DNA of 64,000 nucleotides, taken from positions 2,080,865-2,144,864 of the forward strand of contig CAVYEB010000002.1 of assembly GCA_963767585.1 (NCBI GenBank), read 5' to 3'. The notes under the pieces were generated by a model. It saw nothing but the letters and a program-made list of their open reading frames with translations, did no database searches and was not told the origin of the DNA. The stretch comes from an uncultured delta proteobacterium (lineage in GTDB: Bacteria > Desulfobacterota > Syntrophobacteria > Syntrophobacterales > Syntrophobacteraceae). Below are positions 10,625 to 64,000 of this stretch, one piece after another (the stretch's first letter is position 1; every line of letters starts with the position of its first letter). The translations under genes were made by a program, and so were the position numbers.

Positions 10625-10786
10625 GGTGCTTCGCACACTCGGGCCTTGACTTCCAATCGGGAGATTAATACAAGCGGTCTGGAAACATGAAGTTTGCGTG
10701 TGGAGAGAAGAGCAGGGGAAATATTTAAATTCCTTTGCCCGTTTTCAATGCCTGTTTTTTTTCAGTATAGATCGAAAGGATTAGTG

Positions 10787-11704
10787 ATGAAAAACTGGGC
10801 TTTCCTTTTTCCTGGGCAGGGATCGCAATACGTTGGAATGGGGCGTGAATTCCATGACAACTACAGCGAAGTGCGGGAGTTATTCCGGAACGCAAGCGAT
10901 ATCCTGAAAATGGATATTGCCAAGCTATGCTTCGAAGGCCCTGACGATGTGCTGGTGTTGACGGAAAACGTCCAGCCGGCCATTACCGTCGTGAACCTGG
11001 CGTGTCTGACCGTGCTTCGGCTCCATGAAATCTTCCCGGCCGCCGCCGCCGGGCACAGCCTGGGGGAGTACAGCGCGCTCTATGCGGCTGGGGCGACGAA
11101 CCTGGAAGATACGCTCAAGCTGGTTCGACACAGGGGGAAATTCATGCAGGAGGCGGCCATAATGGAGCCGGGAGGCATGGCCGCAATAATAGACCTGCAA
11201 GAGGAAAAAATCCGCGAGATCTGCAAGGAGTCGGGAGCCGAAGTCGCAAACATAAATTGCGTTGAGCAGATCATAATTACCGGGCCTGAAGTCGAGGTAA
11301 ACAGCGCGGCTGTGATGTGCGAAAAGGCCGGCGCCAAAATGTGCGTGAAGCTCAATGTGAGCGGACCGTGGCACAGTCGGTGTATGGAATATGCGCGCGA
11401 GAAGTTCAAACCGGTCCTTCGGGAATGTGCTTTCAAAGATCCCCAAATTCCGGTCGTAAATAACGTAGACGCACAAATCCCCGGGGGAGGCTCGGAACTC
11501 CAGGACAAACTGAGCCGCCAGATATGCAGCCCGGTCATGTGGAAGCAATCCATGGAGCATCTGATTGAGCGTGGCTTCGATCAATTTGTCGAAGTTGGGC
11601 CGAAGAAAGTATTGCGAGGGCTCATGCGCAGAATCGATCGAAAGGTAAAAGTGTTGGGCGTTGAGGACAACGCAAGCCTTGCAGCTTTTCTGCAGGCTAA
11701 CTGA
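10787..11704 (+). CDS. fabD: malonyl-CoA:ACP transacylase
   Basis: MKNWAFLFPGQGSQYVGMG and GHSLGEYSAL motifs. Confidence 0.9.
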   Translation: MKNWAFLFPGQGSQYVGMGREFHDNYSEVRELFRNASDILKMDIAKLCFEGPDDVLVLTENVQPAITVVNLACLTVLRLHEIFPAAAAGHSLGEYSALYAAGATNLEDTLKLVRHRGKFMQEAAIMEPGGMAAIIDLQEEKIREICKESGAEVANINCVEQIIITGPEVEVNSAAVMCEKAGAKMCVKLNVSGPWHSRCMEYAREKFKPVLRECAFKDPQIPVVNNVDAQIPGGGSELQDKLSRQICSPVMWKQSMEHLIERGFDQFVEVGPKKVLRGLMRRIDRKVKVLGVEDNASLAAFLQAN

Positions 11705-11706
11705 AA

Positions 11707-11748
11707 GGCAATTAGGAATGAGCAATGAGCAATTAGGAATGAAGGAAT
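11707..11748 (+). repeat. AATTAGGAATG-family word array
   Basis: ggcaattaggaatgagcaatgagcaattaggaatgaagg, directly after the fabD stop. Confidence 0.9.
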
Positions 11749-19899: not shown

Positions 19900-20154
19900 T
19901 TGCCTATTTACGAATTTCGGTGTGCGGGTTGCGGCAATGTCGAGGAATTCATCCTGACGGGTAGCCGGGAAATCGAGATGAAGTGCAGCGCGTGCGGAGG
20001 GGAAGGCCTGGAGCGCGTCATCAGCCGAACAAACTATGTGATGGGTTCATCGGGTTCGTCGAAGGGAGCCGATATTTCTGCCACATCGCGCTCATGCGGA
20101 CCCGGGCAATCGTGCACGTCCATAGAACTGCCGGGACATAAAAGAGAGGACTGA
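19900..20154 (+). CDS. FmdB-family putative regulatory zinc-ribbon protein
   Basis: TTG start after AAGGGAGAAG gives (M)PIYEFRCAGCG...KCSACGG, the classic FmdB N-terminus. Confidence 0.7.
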   Translation: MPIYEFRCAGCGNVEEFILTGSREIEMKCSACGGEGLERVISRTNYVMGSSGSSKGADISATSRSCGPGQSCTSIELPGHKRED

Positions 20155-20176
20155 GGACTAAGGACTGAGGACTGAG
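20146..20176 (+). repeat. GGACTGA-type array supplying the zinc-ribbon gene stop (a copy at 20530-20560 lies inside the duplication)
   Basis: gaggactgaggactaaggactgaggactgagg. Confidence 0.95.
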
Positions 20177-20188
20177 GGGGGGACGAGT

Positions 20189-20509
20189 GTGGCCAAGGTC
20201 GACAGATTCGAAGATTTGATTGCCTGGCAGAAAGCGCGGGAGCTGATACGGGCTGTCTATGAGGTTACGCGGCTCGGGGTCTTTGCCAAGGACTATAACC
20301 TAAGCGGGCAGATTCAGCGGGCCGCCGTTTCGATCATGTCGAATATCGCCGAGGGGTTTGAGCGCGGTGGTCGTGGCGAATTTCACCAGTTCCTTTCCAC
20401 TGCCAAGGCGTCATGCGCGGAAGTGCGTTCCCAACTATACGTCGCCAGGGAGCCGATATTTCTGCCACATCGCGCTCATGCGGACCCGGGCAATCGTGCA
20501 CGTCCATAG
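20189..20509 (+). pseudogene. truncated/chimeric four-helix-bundle (23S rRNA IVS-type) gene created by the duplication
   Basis: Identical to the intact copy through ...RSQLYVA, then reads out of frame into the duplicated 3' end of the zinc-ribbon gene. Confidence 0.8.
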
Positions 20510-20572
20510 AACTGCCGGGACATAAAAGAGAGGACTGAGGACTAAGGACTGAGGACTGAGGGGGGGACGAGT

Positions 20573-20905
20573 GTGGCCAAGGTCGACAGATTCGAAGATT
20601 TGATTGCCTGGCAGAAAGCGCGGGAGCTGATACGGGCCGTCTATGAGGTTGCGCGGCTCGGGGCCTTTGCCAAGGACTATAACCTAAGCGGGCAGATTCA
20701 GCGGGCCGCCGTTTCGATCATGTCGAATATCGCCGAGGGGTTTGAGCGCGGTGGTCGTGGCGAATTTCACCAGTTCCTTTCCACTGCCAAGGCGTCATGC
20801 GCGGAAGTGCGTTCCCAACTATACGTCGCCCTGGATATAGGTTATCTGGACAAGGCGTCATTCGACGCACTCATGCAGCAAGCTGAGGAAGTGCTCGAAT
20901 TGTAG
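20573..20905 (+). CDS. four-helix-bundle protein (23S rRNA intervening-sequence protein family)
   Basis: [26 protein letters not shown]...[10 protein letters not shown]...[25 protein letters not shown] is typical of this family. Confidence 0.85.
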
Positions 20906-20980
20906 GCGGCTTGCGTGCCTCTATACACAGACAGAAAGAATACGGAGGCAAATGAACAACATTGTTCCAGTTTACTTCCA

Positions 20981-21010
20981 CTCAGTCCCCAGTCCCCAGT
21001 CCTCAGTCCT
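20981..21010 (-). repeat. GGACTGA/GGGACTG array supplying the DUF1992 stop
   Basis: ctcagtccccagtccccagtcctcagtcct. Confidence 0.9.
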
Positions 21011-21413
21011 CGCGCTTCGCGCAGTCCTTTTCCTTGCTTCCCATTTTTTCTACGATCCTGTCGTAATATACCTGGTTTGTTTCGAGATCCAGCGAGCTGC
21101 GGCGGGACATGTTGAGTTTCATGATGAGGTAATTCAGCTTCTTTATCTGCCTGTATTTTTCCTTCGTATCCTTGACTCCGTCCAGCAATTCTTCGATAGA
21201 AAAGATTTCTTTTCTAAGCTCGAGCTCAGGAGGGAGACAGTCGGCATTTTTTAAAATCTTGTACGCCAGCCGGATATCCTGGGGAATATGCCTGTCGTCC
21301 TCCAACTGGAGGGGTTTCCCCTTACCGGCAAGATTATCGAATTCGCCGTTGTCCATTGCTTCACGGATTTTTTTCTCCGCGATTTTCTCGAATGCTTCGA
21401 ATATATTACCCAT
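21003..21413 (-). CDS. DUF1992 (DnaJC28-like) domain protein
   Basis: AMDNGEFDNLAGKGKPLQLEDD...AYKILKNADCLPPELELRKEI. Confidence 0.8.
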   Translation of the reverse strand: MGNIFEAFEKIAEKKIREAMDNGEFDNLAGKGKPLQLEDDRHIPQDIRLAYKILKNADCLPPELELRKEIFSIEELLDGVKDTKEKYRQIKKLNYLIMKLNMSRRSSLDLETNQVYYDRIVEKMGSKEKDCAKRED

Positions 21414-23872: not shown

Positions 23873-26455
23873 ATGCCACTTGAATCATATCATGAAAAAC
23901 GCCGCTTCCAACGCACCCCTGAGCCGCAGGGGAAGGTTGAAGCGACCCCGGGAGGCAATCTCTATATAATCCAGAAACACGCAGCAAGCCACCTTCATTA
24001 CGACCTTCGACTCGAGCTTGACGGGGTCCTCAAGAGCTGGGCGGTGCCTAAAGGCCCAAGCCTTAAGCCGACCGAGAAAAGGCTTGCCGTCCATGTAGAA
24101 GACCACCCGATAGAATACGGTTCTTTTGAGGGAATGATCCCGGAGGGAGAATACGGGGCGGGAACGGTCATGCTCTGGGATCGCGGAACGTGGGAGCCTG
24201 GGGGTGACCCTCATGCGGGATACGCCAAAGGTGACTTCAAGTTCAAACTGCACGGCGAGAAGCTGAAAGGGAGCTGGGTGCTTGCAAGAATGAAAGGAAA
24301 AGCGGGGGGAGACGAGGGCAAGAACTGGCTGCTTATAAAAAAACGCGACGATGCGGCTATCTCCGGATCTGAACCGGAACCCGTCGAAGTTTTGGACCGG
24401 AGTGTGGCGAGCGGGCGCACAATGCAGGAAATTTCGTCTCAGAGTGATAAATTCTGGATCGTCCCATCCGACCTGCCCGGCGTTCGTCAGGCAGATCAGC
24501 CGGAATTTATGCAATTACAGCTCGCAACGCCGGGCGATAAACCTCCAAAGGGTGAAAACTGGCTGCATGAAATTAAATACGACGGCTACCGGATATTGTG
24601 CAGACTCCGCGAAGGACAGGCGCGGCTTTTTTCACGGAATGAAAAGGAATGGACGAACCGGTTTCCTCAGATAGCTGAAGCTGCCGCCAGGATTCCAATC
24701 GAAAGCGCATTTTTGGACGGAGAGGTGGCGGTCATTGACGAGCATGGAAAGACCGACTTTCAGGCGCTTCAGAATATCCTCCAGGGAACACATACGGGCA
24801 AGCTCGTCTACTTCGTTTTCGATATACCGTTTTGCGCCGGCTACGATCTCACGCAAACACCGCTTATTAAGCGCAAGGAGCTTCTGCTAAAGAAACTATT
24901 GTCGCTCAAACATTCGAACGGCGAATCCCAGGTCCTCTACGCAGATCACATTGTCGGGCAGGGAGAGTCCGTCTTTCAATCAGCGTGCAGGCTCGGGCTC
25001 GAGGGCATTGTTTCCAAGCGTGCCGACAGCAGCTATGAAAAGGGGAGGGGCAGGAACTGGATCAAGGTGAAATGCTCCATGAGGCAGGAGTTTGTAGTTG
25101 GGGGATTCACCGATCCGGGTGGTTCCCGGATAGGTTTTGGCGCGCTGTTGCTCGGATACTATAGCCCGCAGGGCCGGCTGGTTTATGCAGGTAGAACTGG
25201 AACTGGATTCGACGACCAGACCCTTGAAACTCTCTCAAAGCGACTGGTGCGGATGGAAACCGACACGCCGACGTTCAGCAATCCTCCTGCAGGCTATGAG
25301 GCCAAGGGGGTCCATTGGATCAGGCCGGAACTGGTGGCTGAGGTGGTATTCAGCGCCTGGACCGATGATGGAGTTCTTCGCCACCCCGCTTTCAAAGGAT
25401 TAAGGGAGGATAAGGACCCAAAAGATGTTGTCCGGGAGGACAACGGAGGACGGAAGAAAGAGGAATTAGGAGTGGCGCCTACTTCTTGGCGCAAGGCTGG
25501 AGTGAGATTGGCCGGCGCCGAACCGGAGGTTAGGGAAGAGGGCGGAGAACAGAGGACACAGGACGGAAGGCGGAAGACAGGAGGCAAAATGACGGCTCTT
25601 ACGAACCCGAATCGGGTTTTCTACCCCGAAATTGGGGTGACCAAACGCGCCCTTGCCGAATATTACACCGAAATCGCCGACTGGATTATGCCGCATCTTG
25701 CGGGGCGTCCGCTTACCCTCGTGCGCTGTCCGGAAGGACGGGAGAAGGAGTGCTTCTTTCAGAAACATCTCCGGGATGGGGCCCCTGAGATCCTCAGGTC
25801 TATCCCGGTAATGGAAAAAAACGAGAAAGTATACTACAGCGTCGCCGACAATATCGAAGGCGTCATAGCGCTGGTTCAGATGGGAGCTTTGGAAATACAT
25901 GTATGGGGGAGCCGGGAAGATAAGCTGGAGCAGCCGGACATGATGATATTCGATCTCGATCCCGCGCCTGAGGTCGACTGGGGTGAAATGGTCAAGGCCG
26001 CCAGGCTCATGCGCGAGCGGCTCTCAAACCTGGGACTGGAGAGCTTTGTGAAGACGACCGGAGGAAAAGGGCTGCACATAGTAGTCCCTCTTACTCCCAA
26101 TGCGGACTGGGAAACGGTCAAGGCGTTTTCCAAAGCGGTGGCGGACAGCATAGTCCGGGAGTACCCCGGAAAATATATCGCCACTATGTCCAAAGAAAAG
26201 CGCAAGGGTAAGATTTTTATCGATTATCTTAGAAACGGGCGTGGGGCGACAAGCGTAGCGGCTTATTCCACAAGAAGCCGGCATGGCGCTCCCATATCAA
26301 CACCCGTCGCATGGGATGAGCTTACCACCGACCTCAAACCGGACAGCTACAACATCCAAAATATCCGTGGCAGATTGTCCCACCTCCAGGGCGACCCCTG
26401 GGCAGGATATTTTTCGCTCCGGCAGGAAATAGACATAGATGCAATTAGAAATTAG
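23873..26455 (+). CDS. ligD: DNA ligase D (3'-phosphoesterase - ATP-dependent ligase - polymerase/primase domains)
   Basis: N-terminus YHEKRRFQRTPEP...HYDLRLE (PE domain); ligase KYDGYR motif; C-terminal LTNPNRVFYPE...DLDP... polymerase domain. Confidence 0.9.
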   Translation: MPLESYHEKRRFQRTPEPQGKVEATPGGNLYIIQKHAASHLHYDLRLELDGVLKSWAVPKGPSLKPTEKRLAVHVEDHPIEYGSFEGMIPEGEYGAGTVMLWDRGTWEPGGDPHAGYAKGDFKFKLHGEKLKGSWVLARMKGKAGGDEGKNWLLIKKRDDAAISGSEPEPVEVLDRSVASGRTMQEISSQSDKFWIVPSDLPGVRQADQPEFMQLQLATPGDKPPKGENWLHEIKYDGYRILCRLREGQARLFSRNEKEWTNRFPQIAEAAARIPIESAFLDGEVAVIDEHGKTDFQALQNILQGTHTGKLVYFVFDIPFCAGYDLTQTPLIKRKELLLKKLLSLKHSNGESQVLYADHIVGQGESVFQSACRLGLEGIVSKRADSSYEKGRGRNWIKVKCSMRQEFVVGGFTDPGGSRIGFGALLLGYYSPQGRLVYAGRTGTGFDDQTLETLSKRLVRMETDTPTFSNPPAGYEAKGVHWIRPELVAEVVFSAWTDDGVLRHPAFKGLREDKDPKDVVREDNGGRKKEELGVAPTSWRKAGVRLAGAEPEVREEGGEQRTQDGRRKTGGKMTALTNPNRVFYPEIGVTKRALAEYYTEIADWIMPHLAGRPLTLVRCPEGREKECFFQKHLRDGAPEILRSIPVMEKNEKVYYSVADNIEGVIALVQMGALEIHVWGSREDKLEQPDMMIFDLDPAPEVDWGEMVKAARLMRERLSNLGLESFVKTTGGKGLHIVVPLTPNADWETVKAFSKAVADSIVREYPGKYIATMSKEKRKGKIFIDYLRNGRGATSVAAYSTRSRHGAPISTPVAWDELTTDLKPDSYNIQNIRGRLSHLQGDPWAGYFSLRQEIDIDAIRN

Positions 26456-26460
26456 GAATG
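26441..26460 (+). repeat. AATTAGGAATG-family array (left arm), containing the ligD stop
   Basis: gcaattagaaattaggaatg. Confidence 0.9.
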
Positions 26461-26504
26461 ACTCTTCGAAAAGTTCTCACGCGAAGGGGCGATGAAGATG
26501 ACCC

Positions 26505-26670
26505 TTTTCATGGTTTCCGGGTGTCCCCAAAGGACGTGAAAAGCTGCTTCGAAAAGTTTATCGCGGGCAAGGCCCTGGGAGCGCAGCGCGGTCTCAGCCC
26601 TACCAAAATGTCTCGTCTTTTCGTGGTTTCAGGGTGTCCCGAAGGGACGTGCAAAACTGTTACGAAAAGG
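26505..26670 (+). repeat. two REP-like units, family B, nested between the arms of the word-hairpin
   Basis: ttttcatggtttccgggtgtccc...ctgcttcgaaaag..atcgcgggcaaggccc and a second degenerate unit. They match 59027-59150. Confidence 0.8.
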
Positions 26671-26680
26671 AACCTTCTCC

Positions 26681-26706
26681 ATAATTCCTAATTGCTTCAT
26701 TGCTTC
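26681..26706 (-). repeat. AATTAGGAATG-family array (right arm, inverted)
   Basis: ataattcctaattgcttcattgcttc. Confidence 0.85.
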
Positions 26707-31348: not shown

Positions 31349-32242
31349 ATGCTCGAGACACCTATCTTCGAAACAAATTTTCCGGGGTTGAATCTCCTGT
31401 CACGAGGTAAAGTGCGAGACATTTATGATCTTGGCGATTCTTTGCTCATAGTGGCGACAGACCGGATTTCGGCTTTCGACGTCGTAATGCCTGACCCGAT
31501 TCCCGATAAGGGCACGATATTGACCCAACTGTCTGAATTCTGGCTCCGCTACCTCAACGACGTCATTGACAACCACCTGATAAGCACCGATTGCAGCCAT
31601 TTTCCCGAAGTCTGCCGACCGTATTCCTCGCAGCTCAAGGGGCGTACAATGTTGGTGAAAAAGGCAAAAGTGCTGCCTGTTGAATGCATAGTCAGAGGAT
31701 ATCTCGCAGGTTCGGGCTGGGAAGACTACCGGAGCAGCGGCCAACTTAGTGGAATATCTCTTCCTTCGGGGCTTATCGAAGCCCAAAAATTGCCGGAGCC
31801 TTTATTTACTCCATCGACCAAGGCAAAGCAGGGCGATCATGATGAAAATATTTCTTTTCAGGCGATGGGCGAGGCCATTGGGCGAAGTCTTGCTCAGGAT
31901 GTAAAGGATGCTGCTATTGCCCTTTACTTGAAGGCCTCGAGATATGCCGGGGAGCGTGGAATTATTCTCGCCGATACGAAATTCGAATTCGGAACCGTCG
32001 GCACAAAACTGATACTTGTCGATGAAGTGCTTACTCCCGACTCGAGCCGTTTCTGGCCGGCAGACCGCTATCGCCCGGGAAGCAGCCCCGAGAGCTTTGA
32101 TAAGCAGTTTCTGCGCGACTACCTGAAATCGAGCGGGTGGAAAAAGACCGACCCTGCTCCTAAACTCCCTGAAGATGTTGTGGTGAATACGCGCGCCAGG
32201 TACCTCGAGGCGCTTAGACGGCTTTCCGGAAGGAACGTCTAA
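31349..32242 (+). CDS. purC: phosphoribosylaminoimidazole-succinocarboxamide (SAICAR) synthase
   Basis: GKVRDIYDLGDSLLIVATDRISAFD and LADTKFEFG motifs. Confidence 0.92.
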   Translation: MLETPIFETNFPGLNLLSRGKVRDIYDLGDSLLIVATDRISAFDVVMPDPIPDKGTILTQLSEFWLRYLNDVIDNHLISTDCSHFPEVCRPYSSQLKGRTMLVKKAKVLPVECIVRGYLAGSGWEDYRSSGQLSGISLPSGLIEAQKLPEPLFTPSTKAKQGDHDENISFQAMGEAIGRSLAQDVKDAAIALYLKASRYAGERGIILADTKFEFGTVGTKLILVDEVLTPDSSRFWPADRYRPGSSPESFDKQFLRDYLKSSGWKKTDPAPKLPEDVVVNTRARYLEALRRLSGRNV

Positions 32243-32300
32243 TTGAGGGAATTAGGAATGAGGAATTAGGAATGGAGGAATTCTCCTGGGGAATTAGGGA
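32240..32300 (+). repeat. AATTAGGAATG-family array filling the purC / ParB-like spacer
   Basis: taattgagggaattaggaatgaggaattaggaatggaggaattctcctggggaattagggattg ATGATG. Confidence 0.95.
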
Positions 32301-33266
32301 TTGATGGACTTACGCTTTGTAATCTTGCCCGAGATCGACCTGGATAACGGGACCTTCGAGATAAGAGAATTCGCAGGCACGACCCGTCTGCGGGAATCGC
32401 TTGCACGCTTGGGAATTCTTGACCCGCCCTGGCTCCAAAAAAAGGGCGGCGAATACATCGTCATTGATGGTTTCAAAAGACTGTGCTGGGCAAAAGAAAA
32501 TGGGGTGCGGGGGGCGGAGTGCCGGATTTTCCCTGAGCATTACGAAACCAGCGAACTTTGGAAGCGAAGGCTGGAAAAAAAAATCTTCGAACGCGAAATC
32601 AATCCTGCAGAAAAGACGCAAATAGTGTCTACGCTGCTCGAATTGTTTCAACCTTTTGAAATTCCTAGATTTTTTCTCACCGAGTTGGATATTTCAAACC
32701 GCCCCGAGGTCCTGCAGAATTGGGCCCTGCTTTCAACCTGGGGACCGGAAAGCCTCCAAATTATCGCCTCGGGGGCTGTGGCTGAGCGTGCGGCTCTTGA
32801 GATAGCGGGCTGGGACAGGGGCAGCAGAGATTCGATTTTGCGGGTGCTCCTGGTTCTGCGGTGCAGCGCGAGCATCCAGGTGGAGATAGTTGAGCGCATA
32901 AACGAAATAGCTATTCGCGAAGGAAAGGTGGGCGTCGACATTATCGACACTCCACGTGTGCGCGAAATCCTCGAGACAACGGGACTGAACCACCGGCAAA
33001 AAACACAGGCGCTGAGAGAGTTGTTGTCTGAACTGCGGTACCCCAGGCTCAGTTCGAGACAGAGACGGTTCAAGAGGCAGAGCGAAGCTGTTGGGCTCCC
33101 GACAGGAACGAGAATCATTCCCCCGGCGGCATTCGAAGGGAACAATTGGAGGATGGAACTGAGTTTTACTGACGTTCAAGAGCTTCTAAAGATGCTCGAC
33201 CTAACCATGTCTATCGTACAATCAGGTCGCCTGGATGCCATATTGGGAGTTAAGGGTGAAGGGTGA
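32301..33266 (+). CDS. ParB N-terminal (ParB/Srx nuclease-like) domain protein
   Basis: EYIVIDGFKRLCWAKENG resembles the ParB-box DGxxR region. The rest is helical with no obvious motif. Confidence 0.55.
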   Translation: MMDLRFVILPEIDLDNGTFEIREFAGTTRLRESLARLGILDPPWLQKKGGEYIVIDGFKRLCWAKENGVRGAECRIFPEHYETSELWKRRLEKKIFEREINPAEKTQIVSTLLELFQPFEIPRFFLTELDISNRPEVLQNWALLSTWGPESLQIIASGAVAERAALEIAGWDRGSRDSILRVLLVLRCSASIQVEIVERINEIAIREGKVGVDIIDTPRVREILETTGLNHRQKTQALRELLSELRYPRLSSRQRRFKRQSEAVGLPTGTRIIPPAAFEGNNWRMELSFTDVQELLKMLDLTMSIVQSGRLDAILGVKGEG

Positions 33267-34466: not shown

Positions 34467-34490
34467 GGCAATTAGGAATGAGGAATTATG
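34467..34490 (+). repeat. AATTAGGAATG-family array
   Basis: aggcaattaggaatgaggaattatg. Confidence 0.9.
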
Positions 34491-45910: not shown

Positions 45911-45950
45911 AAGGCAATTTGGAGTTGGGAATGAGGAATTAGGAATTGAG
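45911..45950 (+). repeat. AATTAGGAATG-family array
   Basis: aaggcaatttggagttgggaatgaggaattaggaattgag. Confidence 0.9.
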
Positions 45951-47987: not shown

Positions 47988-48935
47988 ATGAAAAAAACTT
48001 TTCTCGTCGCGTTATTAGCATTTGCGACAATAGCGACAATGACACCATATGTGCATGCCGCAGCAGAAGACCTGTTCGACGCTGCTAAAGAAGGAGACAT
48101 TGCTGCAACCCGCCGGTTGCTGGAATGCGGCGCGAACGTAAATGTCAGAAATGAAAACCTGGAGACGCCTTTGCATTGGGCCGCTTATTGGGGCAAGACC
48201 GATGTCGCTGCATTTCTCATTCAGAAATGCGCAAAAGTGAATGCCAGGGATTACTACCAAAAGACGCCGTTGCATGATGCCGCTTCCCGGGGCAGGAACG
48301 ATGTTGCGGCATTGCTCACTCAGAACGGCGCAAAAATAAACGCCGGGGATTATTACCGGGAGACGCCATTGCATCATGCGGCCTATTTTGACAGGACCGA
48401 AATTGCGGCATTTCTCATCGATAAAGGTGCAAAGGTAAATGCCAGGGACGAGAATCAACAGACGCCGTTGCATTGGGCTGCAGAGGACCAGATTGAAGTG
48501 GTTGCATTGCTCATCGATAAGGGCGCAAAAGTAGATGCCAGGGACAATTACCAGGAGACGCCGTTGCACCATAACGCCTCCCGGGGCAAGACGGAGGTTG
48601 CCGCGTTCCTGATCGATAAAGGCGCAGACGTAAATGCCAGGAATGAGGACCAATGGACGCCTTTGCATAATGCTGCCTTTGCGGGCAACACCGAGGTTGC
48701 GGCATTGCTTATTGATAAAGGCGCAGACGTAAATGCCAGGGGCGTGAACCAAAAAACACCGTTGCACTGGGCTGCTTTTGCGGGCAGTACCGGTGTTGCG
48801 GCATTGCTTATTGACAAAGGCGCAGACGTAAATGCCAGAGACGTGAACCAGAAAACGCCGCTGTATTGGGCTGATCTTGTGGGCAACACCGAGGTTGTGG
48901 CACTGCTTAAAAGGCAATTAGGAACTAGGAATTAG
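47988..48935 (+). CDS. secreted ankyrin-repeat protein (about 9 repeats)
   Basis: AGGAGG-N8-ATG. Signal peptide MKKTFLVALLAFATIATMTPYVHA. Repeated TPLHWAA..G...VAALLIDKGADVNAR units. Confidence 0.85.
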   Translation: MKKTFLVALLAFATIATMTPYVHAAAEDLFDAAKEGDIAATRRLLECGANVNVRNENLETPLHWAAYWGKTDVAAFLIQKCAKVNARDYYQKTPLHDAASRGRNDVAALLTQNGAKINAGDYYRETPLHHAAYFDRTEIAAFLIDKGAKVNARDENQQTPLHWAAEDQIEVVALLIDKGAKVDARDNYQETPLHHNASRGKTEVAAFLIDKGADVNARNEDQWTPLHNAAFAGNTEVAALLIDKGADVNARGVNQKTPLHWAAFAGSTGVAALLIDKGADVNARDVNQKTPLYWADLVGNTEVVALLKRQLGTRN

Positions 48936-48936
48936 T
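48909..48936 (+). repeat. AATTAGGAA-family array encoding the last residues and stop of the ankyrin gene
   Basis: aaaggcaattaggaactaggaattag. Confidence 0.9.
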
Positions 48937-48954: not shown

Positions 48955-50154
48955 GTGCGAATCCCCAAAAGAAATTTCTTGTCGCTGGGCCTGATTTTTC
49001 TCATTTGTTCGGTCTTTCTTTTTTCTTCATATACTTTTTCCCGGGCGGAGTCCGAGAACTATGAAAATGCGCAACCGGCCGCGGAGCTTTTAAGGCCTCA
49101 GGCGTCTTACGACCAATACGCCGCGCTTATTGCGGGCATTCGCACACCAAAGTGTGTCCTGGCGCCTTTTGAAAACATGCCCGTCTGGACTGAATATGCC
49201 AAGGCCTCCGACAACAACTGGGAGAAGTACGGGAAGATGCAGTTGGCGCCAATGAGGAAGTGGGCAGCCACGGAACTGGACAAATCAATATCTTCGGGGT
49301 CCACCGTATTCTATCCATTCAGCGGACCGGATTTTATCAGTGCTTTCACCCTTTTCCCCGGTGCACAGACCTTTATCCTGATGGCCCTGGAACCAATCGG
49401 CGATATGCCTGATTTTCAGGCAATGAGCCAAAATGACTTCGATTCATTTTTTACCGATATCCGGAAGTCGCTCCACGATATACTGGACATTAACTATTTC
49501 ATAAGCTCACACATGGACACAGCCATGGAAAGCAAGGAACTCAACGGCGTGATTCCTTTTCTTCTTTTTTTCCTGGCGAGGGAAAAGACCCGCATACTCG
49601 ACGTCGAATATTGGTTTATGGAGCCGAACGGAACCATTCGGCAAGTCCCGGCGTTGAACGGTGGCAAGCCCGGTCCGGCAGACGTCATTCCGGGAGTGCG
49701 GATTGTGTTTGAAAGCGCAGACTCGCCGGGCAACAAGCCGCAGACACTCTACTACTTTCGGCTGAACCTTTATAACCCCAGCTTCGGGCGCAACAGGCAT
49801 TTCATTACTTTTTTGCAGAATTTTGGGCCGCTCATTACCTTCATGAAATCGGCGGCCTATGTAATGTTCGATCGACAGGCGTCGCTGGCGAGGCAGTTCG
49901 TTCTCAATCAAAGCCGCTATATTCTCCAGGAAGATTCCGGAATCCCCTTGAGGTACTTCGACCCTTCAATCTGGGCTCTGCAATTTTACGGCACTTACAG
50001 CGGGCCGATATCGGCTTTCAAAGAAGACTACCAGGCACGACTTGCGAAAATATACAGAAACGGCGGGAACATCAAACCTCTGCCCTTCGGAATAGGCTAT
50101 CACTTCCAGATTGAAACGGCCAACCTTATGCTGGCAACCAGGAAGGGCAATTAG
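48955..50154 (+). CDS. hypothetical secreted/anchored protein
   Basis: GGAGG-N8-GTG, an N-terminal hydrophobic helix, and no motif I recognise. Confidence 0.5.
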   Translation: MRIPKRNFLSLGLIFLICSVFLFSSYTFSRAESENYENAQPAAELLRPQASYDQYAALIAGIRTPKCVLAPFENMPVWTEYAKASDNNWEKYGKMQLAPMRKWAATELDKSISSGSTVFYPFSGPDFISAFTLFPGAQTFILMALEPIGDMPDFQAMSQNDFDSFFTDIRKSLHDILDINYFISSHMDTAMESKELNGVIPFLLFFLAREKTRILDVEYWFMEPNGTIRQVPALNGGKPGPADVIPGVRIVFESADSPGNKPQTLYYFRLNLYNPSFGRNRHFITFLQNFGPLITFMKSAAYVMFDRQASLARQFVLNQSRYILQEDSGIPLRYFDPSIWALQFYGTYSGPISAFKEDYQARLAKIYRNGGNIKPLPFGIGYHFQIETANLMLATRKGN

Positions 50155-50182
50155 GGATGAGGAATTAGGAATTAGGAATGGG
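50146..50182 (+). repeat. AATTAGGAATG-family array containing the stop of the 399-aa ORF
   Basis: ggcaattagggatgaggaattaggaattaggaatggg. Confidence 0.95.
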
Positions 50183-51493: not shown

Positions 51494-53703
<2,210 letters not shown>

Positions 53704-58837: not shown

Positions 58838-59010
58838 TGCGCCCTCACAAACGATCGGCGCCGGACTGCGCCCTCAGAAACCATCGAGCGCCGGACTAGA
58901 CGCGTTACATCACAGGCCATGCGTCAAGCGCGGGACCCAAGATCAGCGAGGGTCCGCATCACAGCACATAATGCGTATAGCGCAGACCCGTAACGCAGTG
59001 AGGGTCCGGG
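58838..59010 (+). repeat. REP/MITE-like family A, about 1.5-2 tandem copies
   Basis: gcgccctcacaaacgatcggcgccggact / gcgccctcagaaaccatcgagcgccggactagacgc ... gagggtccg ... gagggtccg. Confidence 0.8.
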
Positions 59011-59026
59011 CCACCCGGGGACTGTA

Positions 59027-59150
59027 GTTTTCATGGTTTCCGGGTGTCCCATGAGGGCATGAGCAACTGTTTCGAAAAGCTCATCGCGGGCATGGCCCGC
59101 TCCTACAGAGGTGTCGCGTGTTTTCATGGTTTCCGGGTACCCTATGGCAC
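59027..59150 (+). repeat. REP-like family B, two units
   Basis: ttttcatggtttccgggtgtccc..ctgtttcgaaaagctcatcgcgggcatggcccgctcctacag, then ttttcatggtttccgggtaccc. Confidence 0.8.
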
Positions 59151-61830: not shown

Positions 61831-61899
61831 TAAGGGGTGGATTTTTCGAGATCAAATTTATGGACCGCCGGCTTAAAGTCGGCGTCCGGGGAGATTCCA

Positions 61900-63108
61900 A
61901 TGAAAAGCGGTCTAAAGAAACCTCCTGCTATGCGAAAATCCACCAAAGCCATTCATGCCGGTAGCCTCGATCATAGCATATACGGTGAAGTCTCAGTCCC
62001 CATATTTCAAAGTTCGACTTTTGCTTTCCCCAGCGCTGCCGACGGGGCCGACCGATTTTCCGGGAAACAGTCCGGGTACATTTACAGCAGGCTCGGCAAC
62101 CCGACAGTAAAAGCCCTGGAGGATAGCATAGCAAGCCTGGAAGAGGGGTTTGCCGGGGTGGCGACAGCAACCGGAATGGCGGCAGTGAGTTCGGTTTACC
62201 TGTCATTTCTGGGCGGTGGAGATCATGTCGTTGCCACCAACTGTCTCTACGGCTCCTCGCGCGTGATTCTCGAAAGCGAACTGAGCCGCTATGGGGTGAA
62301 AACCACGTTCGTGGACAGCTCGGAGCTGTCGAACATCGCAAAGGCGGTGAACTCCGCGACCAGAATGATTTTCCTGGAATCACCCATGAATCCCAGCATG
62401 AAAATCACCGACCTGGCCGGGGCGGCGAAAATCGCCAGGGAACACGGCGCTCTTCTGGTAGTAGATAATACTTTTGCAAGCCCATACCTCCAGCGGCCTA
62501 TAGAATTTGGGGCCGATATCGTCATCCACAGCCTGACCAAATTTATCAACGGTCATACTGACGTGATTGGAGGGATGGTGATAACGAAGACCAAAGAGCT
62601 GTATAAACGTGTCAACAAGATAGTCAGCCTCTTCGGTGGAACCATGGACCCGCACCAGGCGTGGCTCATTCTGCGCGGGGTGCGCACTCTGCCCCTGAGG
62701 ATCGAGAAGGCCCAGGAAAACGCCATGAAACTTGCCAGGTTTCTGGAATCTCATCCCAAGGTGACGTGGGTAAGCTATCCAGGTCTTCCTGACCACCCGC
62801 AGCATGAATTGGCAAAACGCCAGATGGACGGATTCGGTTCGATGATTTCGTTTGGAGTGAAAAAGGGTCTCAATGGCGGAATAACCGTAATGAACAGCGT
62901 TCGGCTGATTACCCTGGCTGTATCGCTGGGAGGGGTAGAATCGCTTATAGAACACCCTGCTTCCATGACGCATGCATCCATTTCCCCGGAGGAAAGACGG
63001 GAATCGGGCATTGTGGACGAGCTTGTACGTTTTTCAGTAGGATGCGAGGATTTCGAAGACCTGCGCGAAGACCTCAACCAAGCCCTGAATACAATTAGGA
63101 ATTCCTGA
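61900..63108 (+). CDS. Cys/Met-metabolism PLP-dependent enzyme (methionine gamma-lyase / cystathionine gamma-synthase-like)
   Basis: TKAIHAG...PIFQSSTF...YSRLGNPTV...SLTKFINGH (PLP lysine). Confidence 0.8.
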   Translation: MKSGLKKPPAMRKSTKAIHAGSLDHSIYGEVSVPIFQSSTFAFPSAADGADRFSGKQSGYIYSRLGNPTVKALEDSIASLEEGFAGVATATGMAAVSSVYLSFLGGGDHVVATNCLYGSSRVILESELSRYGVKTTFVDSSELSNIAKAVNSATRMIFLESPMNPSMKITDLAGAAKIAREHGALLVVDNTFASPYLQRPIEFGADIVIHSLTKFINGHTDVIGGMVITKTKELYKRVNKIVSLFGGTMDPHQAWLILRGVRTLPLRIEKAQENAMKLARFLESHPKVTWVSYPGLPDHPQHELAKRQMDGFGSMISFGVKKGLNGGITVMNSVRLITLAVSLGGVESLIEHPASMTHASISPEERRESGIVDELVRFSVGCEDFEDLREDLNQALNTIRNS

Positions 63109-63116
63109 TTGTATTG

Positions 63117-64000
63117 TTACATGCGTTCGATTATCTCCTGTCCGAACTGTGAGCATTTGACCTCTTTTGCTCCCTTCATTTGCCGGGCGAGATCGTATGT
63201 GACAATTCTTTCCCTGATCGTCTGCTCGATGGCCTCCTTTATCATATCGGCCGCTTCGGTCCACCCCATGTACTCGAACATCATAACGCCCGAAAGGATC
63301 AGCGACCCTGGATTTACCTTGTCAAGGCCGGCGTATTTTGGGGCTGTGCCGTGCGTGGCTTCAAAGACCGCCGCGTTGTCCCCCACGTTTGCGCCCGGCG
63401 CCATTCCCAATCCGCCGACCTGCGCGGCAAGCGCATCGGAAAGGTAATCTCCGTTCAGGTTGGACGTCGCAATTACGCTGTATTCCTCAGGTCTAAGAAG
63501 AACCTGTTGGAACATCGAATCTGTAATTCGCTCTTTTATCACTATCCTGCCGCCGGGGATCGCTCCGCCGAATTTGAGCTGGACATCCGCCTCGGTGACG
63601 ATCCGGTCTGCGAATTCTTCCTGTGCCAGCTCAAAGCCCCACTTGCGGAATGCCCCTTCTGTATATTTCATGATATTGCCTTTATGAACCAGGGTAACAG
63701 ATGGAAGCCCTTTTTTGATTGCATACGAGATAGCGCGACGCACGAGCCTCTTGGTCCCAGCCGGACTGATAGGTTTTAAGCCGATCCCGGCGAGGGGGGG
63801 AAGAGAGACCTTGAAATTTTCAAAAAGGAACCGCGCAAGCTTCTCAGCCTCCTCAGATCCCGATTCCCATTCAATTCCGGCATAGACGTCCTCCGTATTT
63901 TCTCTGAATATGATCATGTCGACCCTTTCAGGATGACGGGCCGGCGATGGAAGGCCTGAAAAATATCTAACAGGACGAATGCATGCGTAGAGATCCAGAC
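63117..64000 (-). CDS. icd: NADP-dependent isocitrate dehydrogenase, C-terminal part (gene continues past window end)
   Basis: The frame is open to the edge. Hand translation gives [13 protein letters not shown]...[16 protein letters not shown]...[10 protein letters not shown]...GTAPKYAG. Confidence 0.9.

Follow-up and report, generated by a model that had tools for sequence, protein, structure and literature searches.

A 64,000-nt stretch of the genome of an uncultured delta proteobacterium (hereafter the window; G000:C2:2080865-2144864) carries short tandem arrays of the heptamers AATTAGG and AATGAGG at its gene junctions, raising the question of what these arrays are and why they lie beside stop codons. 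The original prediction described them as a translational cassette, composed of a stop, an SD sequence, an ATG and another stop. Our analysis favors a different answer, to which we assign a probability of roughly 60%: the arrays would be gene-less derivatives of selfish PF05635 elements that resemble both intervening sequences (IVSs) and short tandemly repeated repetitive (STRR) sequences, and they would supply a stop and an SD sequence at a few operon junctions. The source genome (G000) comprises 6.38 Mb in two contigs with 52% GC, and the closest named relative of its tgt gene product is from 'Desulfarculales bacterium UBA696' (78% amino-acid identity).

The presence of the repeat family was evaluated by a 14-mer search of the window allowing up to two mismatches. 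This search returned 20 matches compared with 0.62 expected from shuffles, and none of 100 shuffles reached 20. Tandem units were found at all 10 loci for which AATTAGG/AATGAGG copies had been claimed, and the claimed placement at gene junctions was likewise confirmed, since all 10 loci are intergenic or overlap the last codons of a gene. The degenerate trace reported within ligD near 25460 is a single unit compatible with chance; it was given no weight because, by our own arithmetic, about eight lone 7-mers are expected by chance on both strands of 64 kb. Apart from one tRNA, no Rfam matches were found in the window.

On the plus strand, a direct AATTAGG/AATGAGC array (11707..11748) begins 2-5 nt past the TGA (11702-11704) of an acyltransferase-domain gene (10694-11704) and is followed about 12 nt downstream by an ABC ATPase gene (11761). 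The ligD gene runs into the left arm of a hairpin element (GCAATTAGAAATTAGGAATG; 26441..26460, plus strand), its stop being the TAG of the second unit (26453-26455). A 220-nt core (26461..26680), which is taken up by a second repeat family (GGGACACCCGGAAACC type) in two copies and has no PF05635 gene, separates this arm from an inverted right arm of ATAATTCCTAATTGC plus TTCATTGC units (26681..26706, minus strand). The junction between purC and a ParB-like gene is filled by a plus-strand array (32240..32300), with the purC TAA (32240-32242) in a degenerate first unit and the ParB-like start ATG (32304) after AATTAGGGATTG. A short plus-strand array with an AATTATG end (34467..34490) lies 35 nt past the stop of an SPL-like gene (34432) and is not stop-adjacent. 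Between minus-strand ORFs, and antisense to these neighbors, is a degenerate plus-strand array (AAGGCAATTTGGAGTTGGGAATGAGGAATTAGGAATTGAG; 45911..45950). An ankyrin-repeat gene ends within a further plus-strand array (48909..48936), at the TAG of the third unit (48933-48935), and 19 nt on follows a 399-aa ORF, which itself stops at the first-unit TAG (50152-50154) of the plus-strand array at 50146..50182. On the minus strand, the queA/tgt junction is occupied by an array (52603..52636) in the order queA TAA (52640-52638), array, AGGAAUGAC-AUG of tgt, the tgt start ATG lying at 52600-52598. Finally, a collapsed hairpin (AATACAATTAGGAATTCCTGATTGTATT; 63088..63117) fits exactly between two convergent stops, with the TGA of a Cys/Met PLP enzyme gene (63106-63108) inside it and the TTA of a minus-strand gene at 63117-63119; the palindrome at 63086-63122 folds strongly (z = -4.65).

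Several details of the original prediction changed on this inspection. The proposed direct copy at 63093-63108 is actually the center of the 12-bp-stem hairpin at 63088-63117. Termination on the first unit holds for the 399-aa ORF and fails for ligD and the ankyrin-repeat gene, as their second- and third-unit stops show. The start of the ParB-like gene had been read as ATGATG; the sequence reads ...AATTAGGGATTG ATG GAC, and the start at 32304 is assigned by homology with 27 congeners. Similarly, the start of ORF 34488, placed within the last unit of its array, is more probably ATG 34533 inside the frame, with AAGGAG lying 6 nt before it. In annotation, ATGs within arrays should not count as starts.

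In the G000 genome, about 84 strict AATTAGG arrays were identified, of which five lie within genes. Tandem Repeats analysis with TRF assigned them period 7 with 2-8 head-to-tail copies. The same analysis yielded 846 period-7 arrays in the genome, versus 124 with period 6 and 256 with period 8, belonging to more than 12 unit families, among which AATTAGG ranks second (ACTGAGG, 78; AATTAGG, 67, plus AATGAGG, 14; AAAAACT, 53; AAGGGTG, 47; AAAAGGC, 42; AACAGTG, 32; and others). In the window itself, further period-7 units include GAGGACT, CTCAGTC, AAAAGTA, ATCACTA, GAAGCAA and more. Given these 846 arrays and more than 12 families, AATTAGG is one family inside a genome-wide heptamer system. The unit sub-variants differ by species, with AATTAGG alternating with AATGAGG in G000 and homogeneous AATTAGG in the congener G018, which points to spread or homogenisation inside each genome. 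The arrays also have a preferred arrangement: inverted pairs read AATTAGG...CCTAATT in 17 cases, and the opposite order occurred three times, only at distances above 1 kb. An inverted partner within 1.5 kb was found for 17 of the 133 longer G000 arrays (three or more units), about 85% having none.

To compare orthologous junctions, up to 30 species of the same genus were used. The purC/ParB-like junction consists of TGA, 5-8 nt and ATG in 27 of 27 other species, and the array of about 60 nt is present only in G000. At queA/tgt, five congeners (G045, G012, G010, G005 and G020) have an ATGA stop/start overlap, and the AATTAGG array is absent from the congeners; G018 instead carries an AGCAGGG-type heptamer hairpin 1 nt past the stop, and G007 an AAGAGTG array with the stop inside its first unit. 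Relatives of the 399-aa ORF end ...AGGAAATGA, without an array. At the 3' end of the Cys/Met PLP enzyme gene, many species have heptamer-armed hairpins built from ACGGAGG, AGCGGGG, GAGTTTT and other units, and a C-terminal tail of about 25 aa has been lost in several species. Because orthologous junctions in congeners lack them, the arrays are recent lineage-specific insertions. No target-site duplication was visible at the two clean insertion sites (purC/ParB-like and queA/tgt), and neither a transposase, in a non-systematic search, nor defined element ends were found. The pair G016/G018 had been considered near-identical and suited to clean indel mapping; their DNA identity is only 87-88%, and one junction was still informative.

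A gene-bearing form is present in the same window, in a sister family. The GAGGACT element (20146..21011, plus strand) has the order arm, PF05635 gene, arm, PF05635 gene, inverted arm: the first gene (20189-20509), truncated by a 384-bp duplication, lies between GAGGACT arms, and the second (20573-20905) is followed by an inverted CTCAGTC arm (20981-21011). Each of the eight PF05635 genes in G000 has a hepta- or octamer array no more than about 30-80 bp away; as a background, 14.6% of all genes have an array at most 100 bp from an end (p about 2e-7 for 8/8). Clear period-7 arms accompany about 26 of the 31 PF05635 genes in six genomes (G000 and five congeners); most are inverted, usually with the purine-rich arm upstream of the gene and its complement downstream.

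The AATTAGG family follows the same design. Although the copies in the window are all gene-less, AATTAGG-type arms enclose PF05635 genes at G000:C1:698442, G010:C412, G018:C145 and G020:C1:105630 (Pfam E = 1e-26 to 3e-30); two complementary arms around a PF05635 ORF are thus a property of the family and not of every copy. At the PLP-enzyme site, AATTAGG arms enclose a complete PF05635 gene in G010 and G020, and AATTACG arms accompany a gene fragment in G016; only a short hairpin is left in G018 and G000. At a junction shared by G018 and G016, a full hairpin in G018 corresponds to a collapsed AATTAGG|AATTACGAATTCC form in G016, which has the same shape as the window feature at 63088-63117. Together, this junction and the PLP-enzyme site show that one position can have a gene-bearing, a hairpin or a collapsed-palindrome form. 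In addition, past an rRNA-methyltransferase-like gene, a PF05635 gene is found in G018 and a hairpin in G000.

A maximum-likelihood tree of the PF05635 proteins revealed that each clade has its own arm unit (AATTAGG-like, AAAAGGC/AAAAAGT, AGTTTTT, AAGCGGG, xxAGTG, CGGGTT and ACTGAGG). The predicted protein of the AATTAGG clade, whose closest solved structure is 2RLD (E = 3e-32), occurs at three or more different junctions and evolves under purifying selection (dN/dS 0.08-0.13). The arm unit is still AATTAGG even with dS above 1 in the gene beside it. In G020, a PF05635 gene flanked by ACGGAGG-type arms lies inside the 23S rRNA (G020:C1:2708645; Rfam LSU match of 2504 bits, exceeding the model span by about 550 nt). 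Intergenic elements and classical IVSs therefore share architecture and protein family. The AATTAGG copies lie between protein genes and not in 23S rRNA.

Arrays and cognate proteins also co-occur across genomes. Homologues of the AATTAGG-clade protein (at least 66% identity) were found only in G000, G010, G018, G020, G017 and G016 (as a fragment in the last), exactly the six genomes with four or more AATTAGG-array matches. The protein was absent from all 22 array-free genomes searched, and also from G001 and G004, which have one or two weak array matches. In a three-protein tree, the six genomes fall into at least four separate lineages; both array and protein are present in G020 and absent from G012 and G005, which are closely related to it. 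For the GAGGACT family, a cognate protein (at least 80% identity) was found in 11 of 13 array-rich genomes versus 0 of 15 array-free genomes, the exceptions being G014 and G018, two fragmented assemblies in which no cognate gene was seen. The co-occurrence is taken as suggestive only, because related genomes are not independent samples, and it can stem from co-inheritance or co-transfer without functional dependence.

Based on these comparisons, we propose that a full element would consist of a purine-rich 5' arm array, a gene for a four-helix-bundle PF05635 protein of about 120 aa, and a complementary 3' arm array. Most G000 copies (the approximately 84 strict arrays) are gene-less, in the form of solo 5' arms, hairpins or collapsed palindromes. 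Such elements would arise or insert in a lineage-specific manner, the 5' arm touching or running over the stop codon that ends the preceding gene. Each 7-nt unit contains TAG or TGA once, and the ORFs terminate in unit 1, 2 or 3. Since each additional copy moves the reading frame by one base, all three frames are stopped within 21 nt, making an insertion at or just inside a gene end self-terminating. Where an array landed in a tight operon junction, as at purC/ParB-like and queA/tgt, its unstructured 3' end, rich in AGGA/GAGG, may act as a stand-in SD. We infer that the gene-less arrays derive from the gene-bearing element or are propagated or maintained with its help, and that their stop and SD content is tolerated, or occasionally co-opted, and is not why they exist. 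Solo arrays in particular may have derived from hairpin elements, as three orthologous sites in all suggest. Counting against this model, neither a transposase, in the non-systematic search, nor a target-site duplication nor defined element ends were found, and we know of no recombinase activity of PF05635.

A more specific proposal is that every heptamer family serves as the recognition repeat for a PF05635 protein of its own, which propagates or maintains the cognate arrays and lays new copies directionally 3' of stops. The protein could act alone or with a host enzyme. We regard this idea as tentative and on balance doubtful.

The anchoring of the arrays was quantified with a home-made gene set based on ORF and codon-usage calls (5027 genes, 81% coding), in which stops are exact and starts approximate. 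Among sense arrays, 32 of 49 start within 10 nt of, or overlap, a same-strand upstream stop, compared with 0 of 34 antisense arrays abutting a gene end (Fisher p = 7e-11). In tandem-gene spacers (n = 33, median 126 nt), the 5' end lies no more than 10 nt from the upstream stop in 24 arrays, against a uniform expectation of 5.8, and the median gap on this 5' side is 4 nt. Stop anchoring is common to at least eight unrelated heptamer families. Sense-only anchoring, given as sense versus antisense, was observed for ACTGAGG (34/48 vs. 1/24), AAGGGTG (18/34 vs. 0/17), AACAGTG (13/20 vs. 0/11), AAGAGTG (15/17 vs. 0/11) and AAAAAGT (12/22 vs. 0/14), and the AAAAACT family is anchored in the opposite sense, as AGTTTTT. 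Altogether, 255 of 5027 predicted genes (about 5%) have a heptamer array abutting or overlapping the 3' end, and in several proteins the final codons are array-encoded; hence some C-termini, stops and apparent ribosome-binding sites are repeat-derived.

The possibility that anchoring is an artefact of ORF calling was rejected, as antisense CCTAATT puts TAA in all three frames, yet none of the 34 antisense arrays abuts a gene end. Insertion splitting a TGA (T^GA) to create TAA was suggested by both clean sites, purC/ParB-like and queA/tgt; this idea was dropped because stop usage beside arrays is unskewed (TAA 33% vs. 29% genome-wide). The tight anchoring at stop codons is a feature that an origin from PF05635 elements does not by itself account for.

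The same position just 3' of stops would be expected of host-beneficial 3'-end or regulatory elements kept by selection without selfish spread, whether by binding a protein (possibly PF05635) or RNA, or by acting in mRNA 3' stability, RNase III processing or termination. Hairpins that fill a convergent-stop gap exactly, as well as the conservation of the arm unit beside a gene with dS above 1, agree with such a role, and true 23S IVSs, which share this design, are cut by RNase III. However, close relatives have other families, or none, at the same junction, and so no particular gene needs a particular array. Moreover, solo arrays are unstructured purine tracts as RNA (z of 0 or above) and have no predicted structure. 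We therefore consider this explanation unlikely.

A selected translational cassette would stop the upstream gene in any frame and re-load ribosomes through AGGA/GAGGA and an ATG. Stop anchoring in the sense orientation only and the unstructured purine tracts are in line with this proposal, and the stop part of the original prediction was upheld by the 24 anchored arrays among 33. The claim that the arrays provide the sole SD-like sequence was also borne out, with workable spacing, for tgt and for the ParB-like gene: the queA/tgt array replaces the ATGA overlap of five congeners and the purC array a bare short ancestral junction. Because an ancestral junction of 0-8 nt has been replaced at both sites, the array supplies the stop together with the only SD-like purines. 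A general SD/ATG role did not hold, however. In tandem-gene spacers, the array's 3' end comes within 10 nt of the next start in only 2 of 33 cases (uniform expectation, 5.8), the median 3' gap being 87 nt, and 16 of 40 arrays in tandem-gene contexts (about 40%) are antisense. Families with little or no SD character (such as AACAGTG, AAAAAGT and AGTTTTT) keep the stop rule. The purC junction works without an array in 27 congeners, whose encoded gene ends are essentially alike, and queA and tgt overlap directly in five; this comparison, which the original prediction had named as a refuting test, speaks largely against a dedicated cassette. Frames opened by AATTATG are short and unconserved. A gene family starting at AATTATG-GAGAACG was also considered and rejected, since ORFs from 24 such sites are short, unrelated and unconserved; the motif belongs to the edge of a second repeat family, itself non-coding. 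The SD role is thus limited to two or three tight junctions, and a selected cassette is decidedly improbable as a general explanation.

Very unlikely too is that these are ordinary microsatellites, formed in place as replication slips at purine-rich ends of genes and lacking any mobile or protein-linked part, with the PF05635 association as a by-product of both features favoring intergenic DNA: copy number and unit variants do vary across loci and species, period 7 cannot persist in coding DNA and would so be confined to spacers, and the ancestral AGGAAATGA at the end of the 399-aa ORF resembles the unit, but slippage leaves unexplained an identical unit at 84 or more unrelated loci with species-specific sub-variants, a period 3 to 7 times commoner than periods 6 or 8, the fixed chirality of 17 pairs versus three distant reversed ones, the arrays flanking 8/8 PF05635 genes, and the joint occurrence of array family and protein clade in at least four lineages.

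The preferred reading, derivation from selfish PF05635 elements, can be set against several known systems. TAACTGA direct repeats occur in marine Beggiatoaceae, some cyanobacteria and Bacteroidetes, and their possible transmission between lineages has been discussed (MacGregor, 2015; PMC4679880). Like the arrays described here, they provide three-frame stops in the forward orientation, lie almost wholly between genes and can extend over the 3' end of the preceding ORF. In contrast, TAACTGA sets mostly point at a start codon, end 1 nt before it and displace the SD (PMC4679880), whereas AATTAGG is anchored at the upstream stop and rarely reaches the next start. Furthermore, AATTAGG is SD-like and TAACTGA is not, and no PF05635 link is reported for TAACTGA (PMC4679880). 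With REP/BIME sequences and MITEs, the arrays share many gene-less versus few gene-bearing copies, locations just past the ends of genes, bursts specific to a lineage and nesting with a different family of repeats. They differ in that neither a RAYT or other transposase (in the non-systematic search) nor a target-site duplication was found here, and in that their arms are tandem heptamers of variable copy number rather than a fixed palindrome.

STRR heptanucleotides were reportedly described in heterocystous cyanobacteria by Mazel and colleagues in 1990. The likeness extends to 7-nt units, short tandem arrays, several families per genome and many dispersed intergenic sites; the differences are the host, here an uncultured member of the Desulfobacterota, other units, strict stop-codon anchoring and arms around PF05635 genes. 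The record of bacterial heptamer repeats (STRRs and TAACTGA) goes back more than 30 years, and to our knowledge they have no accepted origin or function. In the open-access literature, we found no paper linking heptamer repeats, STRRs included, to PF05635. As a compact test bed, the genus studied here combines a dozen unit families, every one of them with a PF05635 protein clade of its own, with sister species that offer gene-bearing, gene-less and empty versions of one junction, as well as a true rRNA intervening sequence of like design. It presents two testable regularities, namely the start of arrays at stops in one orientation and the co-occurrence of array family and protein clade across independent lineages.

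IVSs of 23S rRNA with a PF05635 ('S23p' / IVP) ORF are known from Leptospira, Coxiella and others. AATTAGG elements differ from them in lying between protein genes and in being mostly gene-less, many as single direct arms from which no stem is possible. The two have in common a long stem of two complementary arms around a gene for a four-helix bundle of about 120 aa. If each heptamer family were the recognition repeat of its PF05635 protein, STRRs, 23S IVSs and stop-anchored arrays would represent one previously unrecognised selfish class, and this class would use a non-transposase factor for mobility or maintenance.

AATTAGG arrays, which are stop-anchored tandem repeats of 7 nt, often form the spacer between two units of a second modular repeat family, giving the arrangement ...GGAAACCTGGAAAGGC-[AATTAGG]n-AATTATGGAGAACG.... 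This second family combines ...CTTTTCGnAACAGnTGCTCACGTCCCnnnGGGACACCCGGAAACCATGAAAAG with recurring spacers some 40 nt long; it has 33 copies across the genome, including those at 26461-26680 and about 59000-59150 of the window, and showed no match in Rfam. In addition, longer multi-copy repeats of the source genome (G000) lie directly 3' of an AATTAGG array and are joined to it at the same point, with the junction forms ...AATTAGT/atcttagttgcgaaattcgtgc... and ...AATTAGG/agtagttgggaatttagtaaatc.... They were located at 353323 on contig C1 and at 1550164, 3783510 and 4394764 on contig C2, with further sites on C2 at 437787, 1201026, 2305914 and 2308163. These repeats are possibly insertion sequences, with the arrays either as their target or as part of what they carry.

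Genes of the PF05635 four-helix-bundle family also occur in duplicated units. A tandem duplication at window 20063-20830 (2 × 384 bp, 99% identity) doubles one arm of the sister heptamer family GAGGACT and one PF05635 gene, the first copy of which is truncated and matches profile positions 1-84 of 106. The duplicated unit at G000:C2:991138-992338 contains two PF05635 genes, 665 bp apart, and its arms are octamers (CCATTCAC, AATCGGTA and TGAGTAGG) rather than heptamers. Moreover, one PF05635 clade in congeners (G016:C119:11583, G018:C1:3642 and G020:C1:2274710) lacks period-7 arms in its flanks, which carry inverted repeats of 9-10 nt of the GGCTGAAGG / CCTTCAGCC type.

Comparison of the Cys/Met PLP enzyme (window 61837-63108) with its orthologues (loci L165-L191) showed that the protein in many congeners ends in a tail of about 25 aa (...AETAATLEAGC type), which is absent wherever a shorter C-terminus is now followed by a heptamer hairpin. 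The ankyrin-repeat gene contains an internal repeat with a 99-bp period (window 48163-48860; 7 copies, 73% matches), which is the ordinary periodicity of ankyrin modules.
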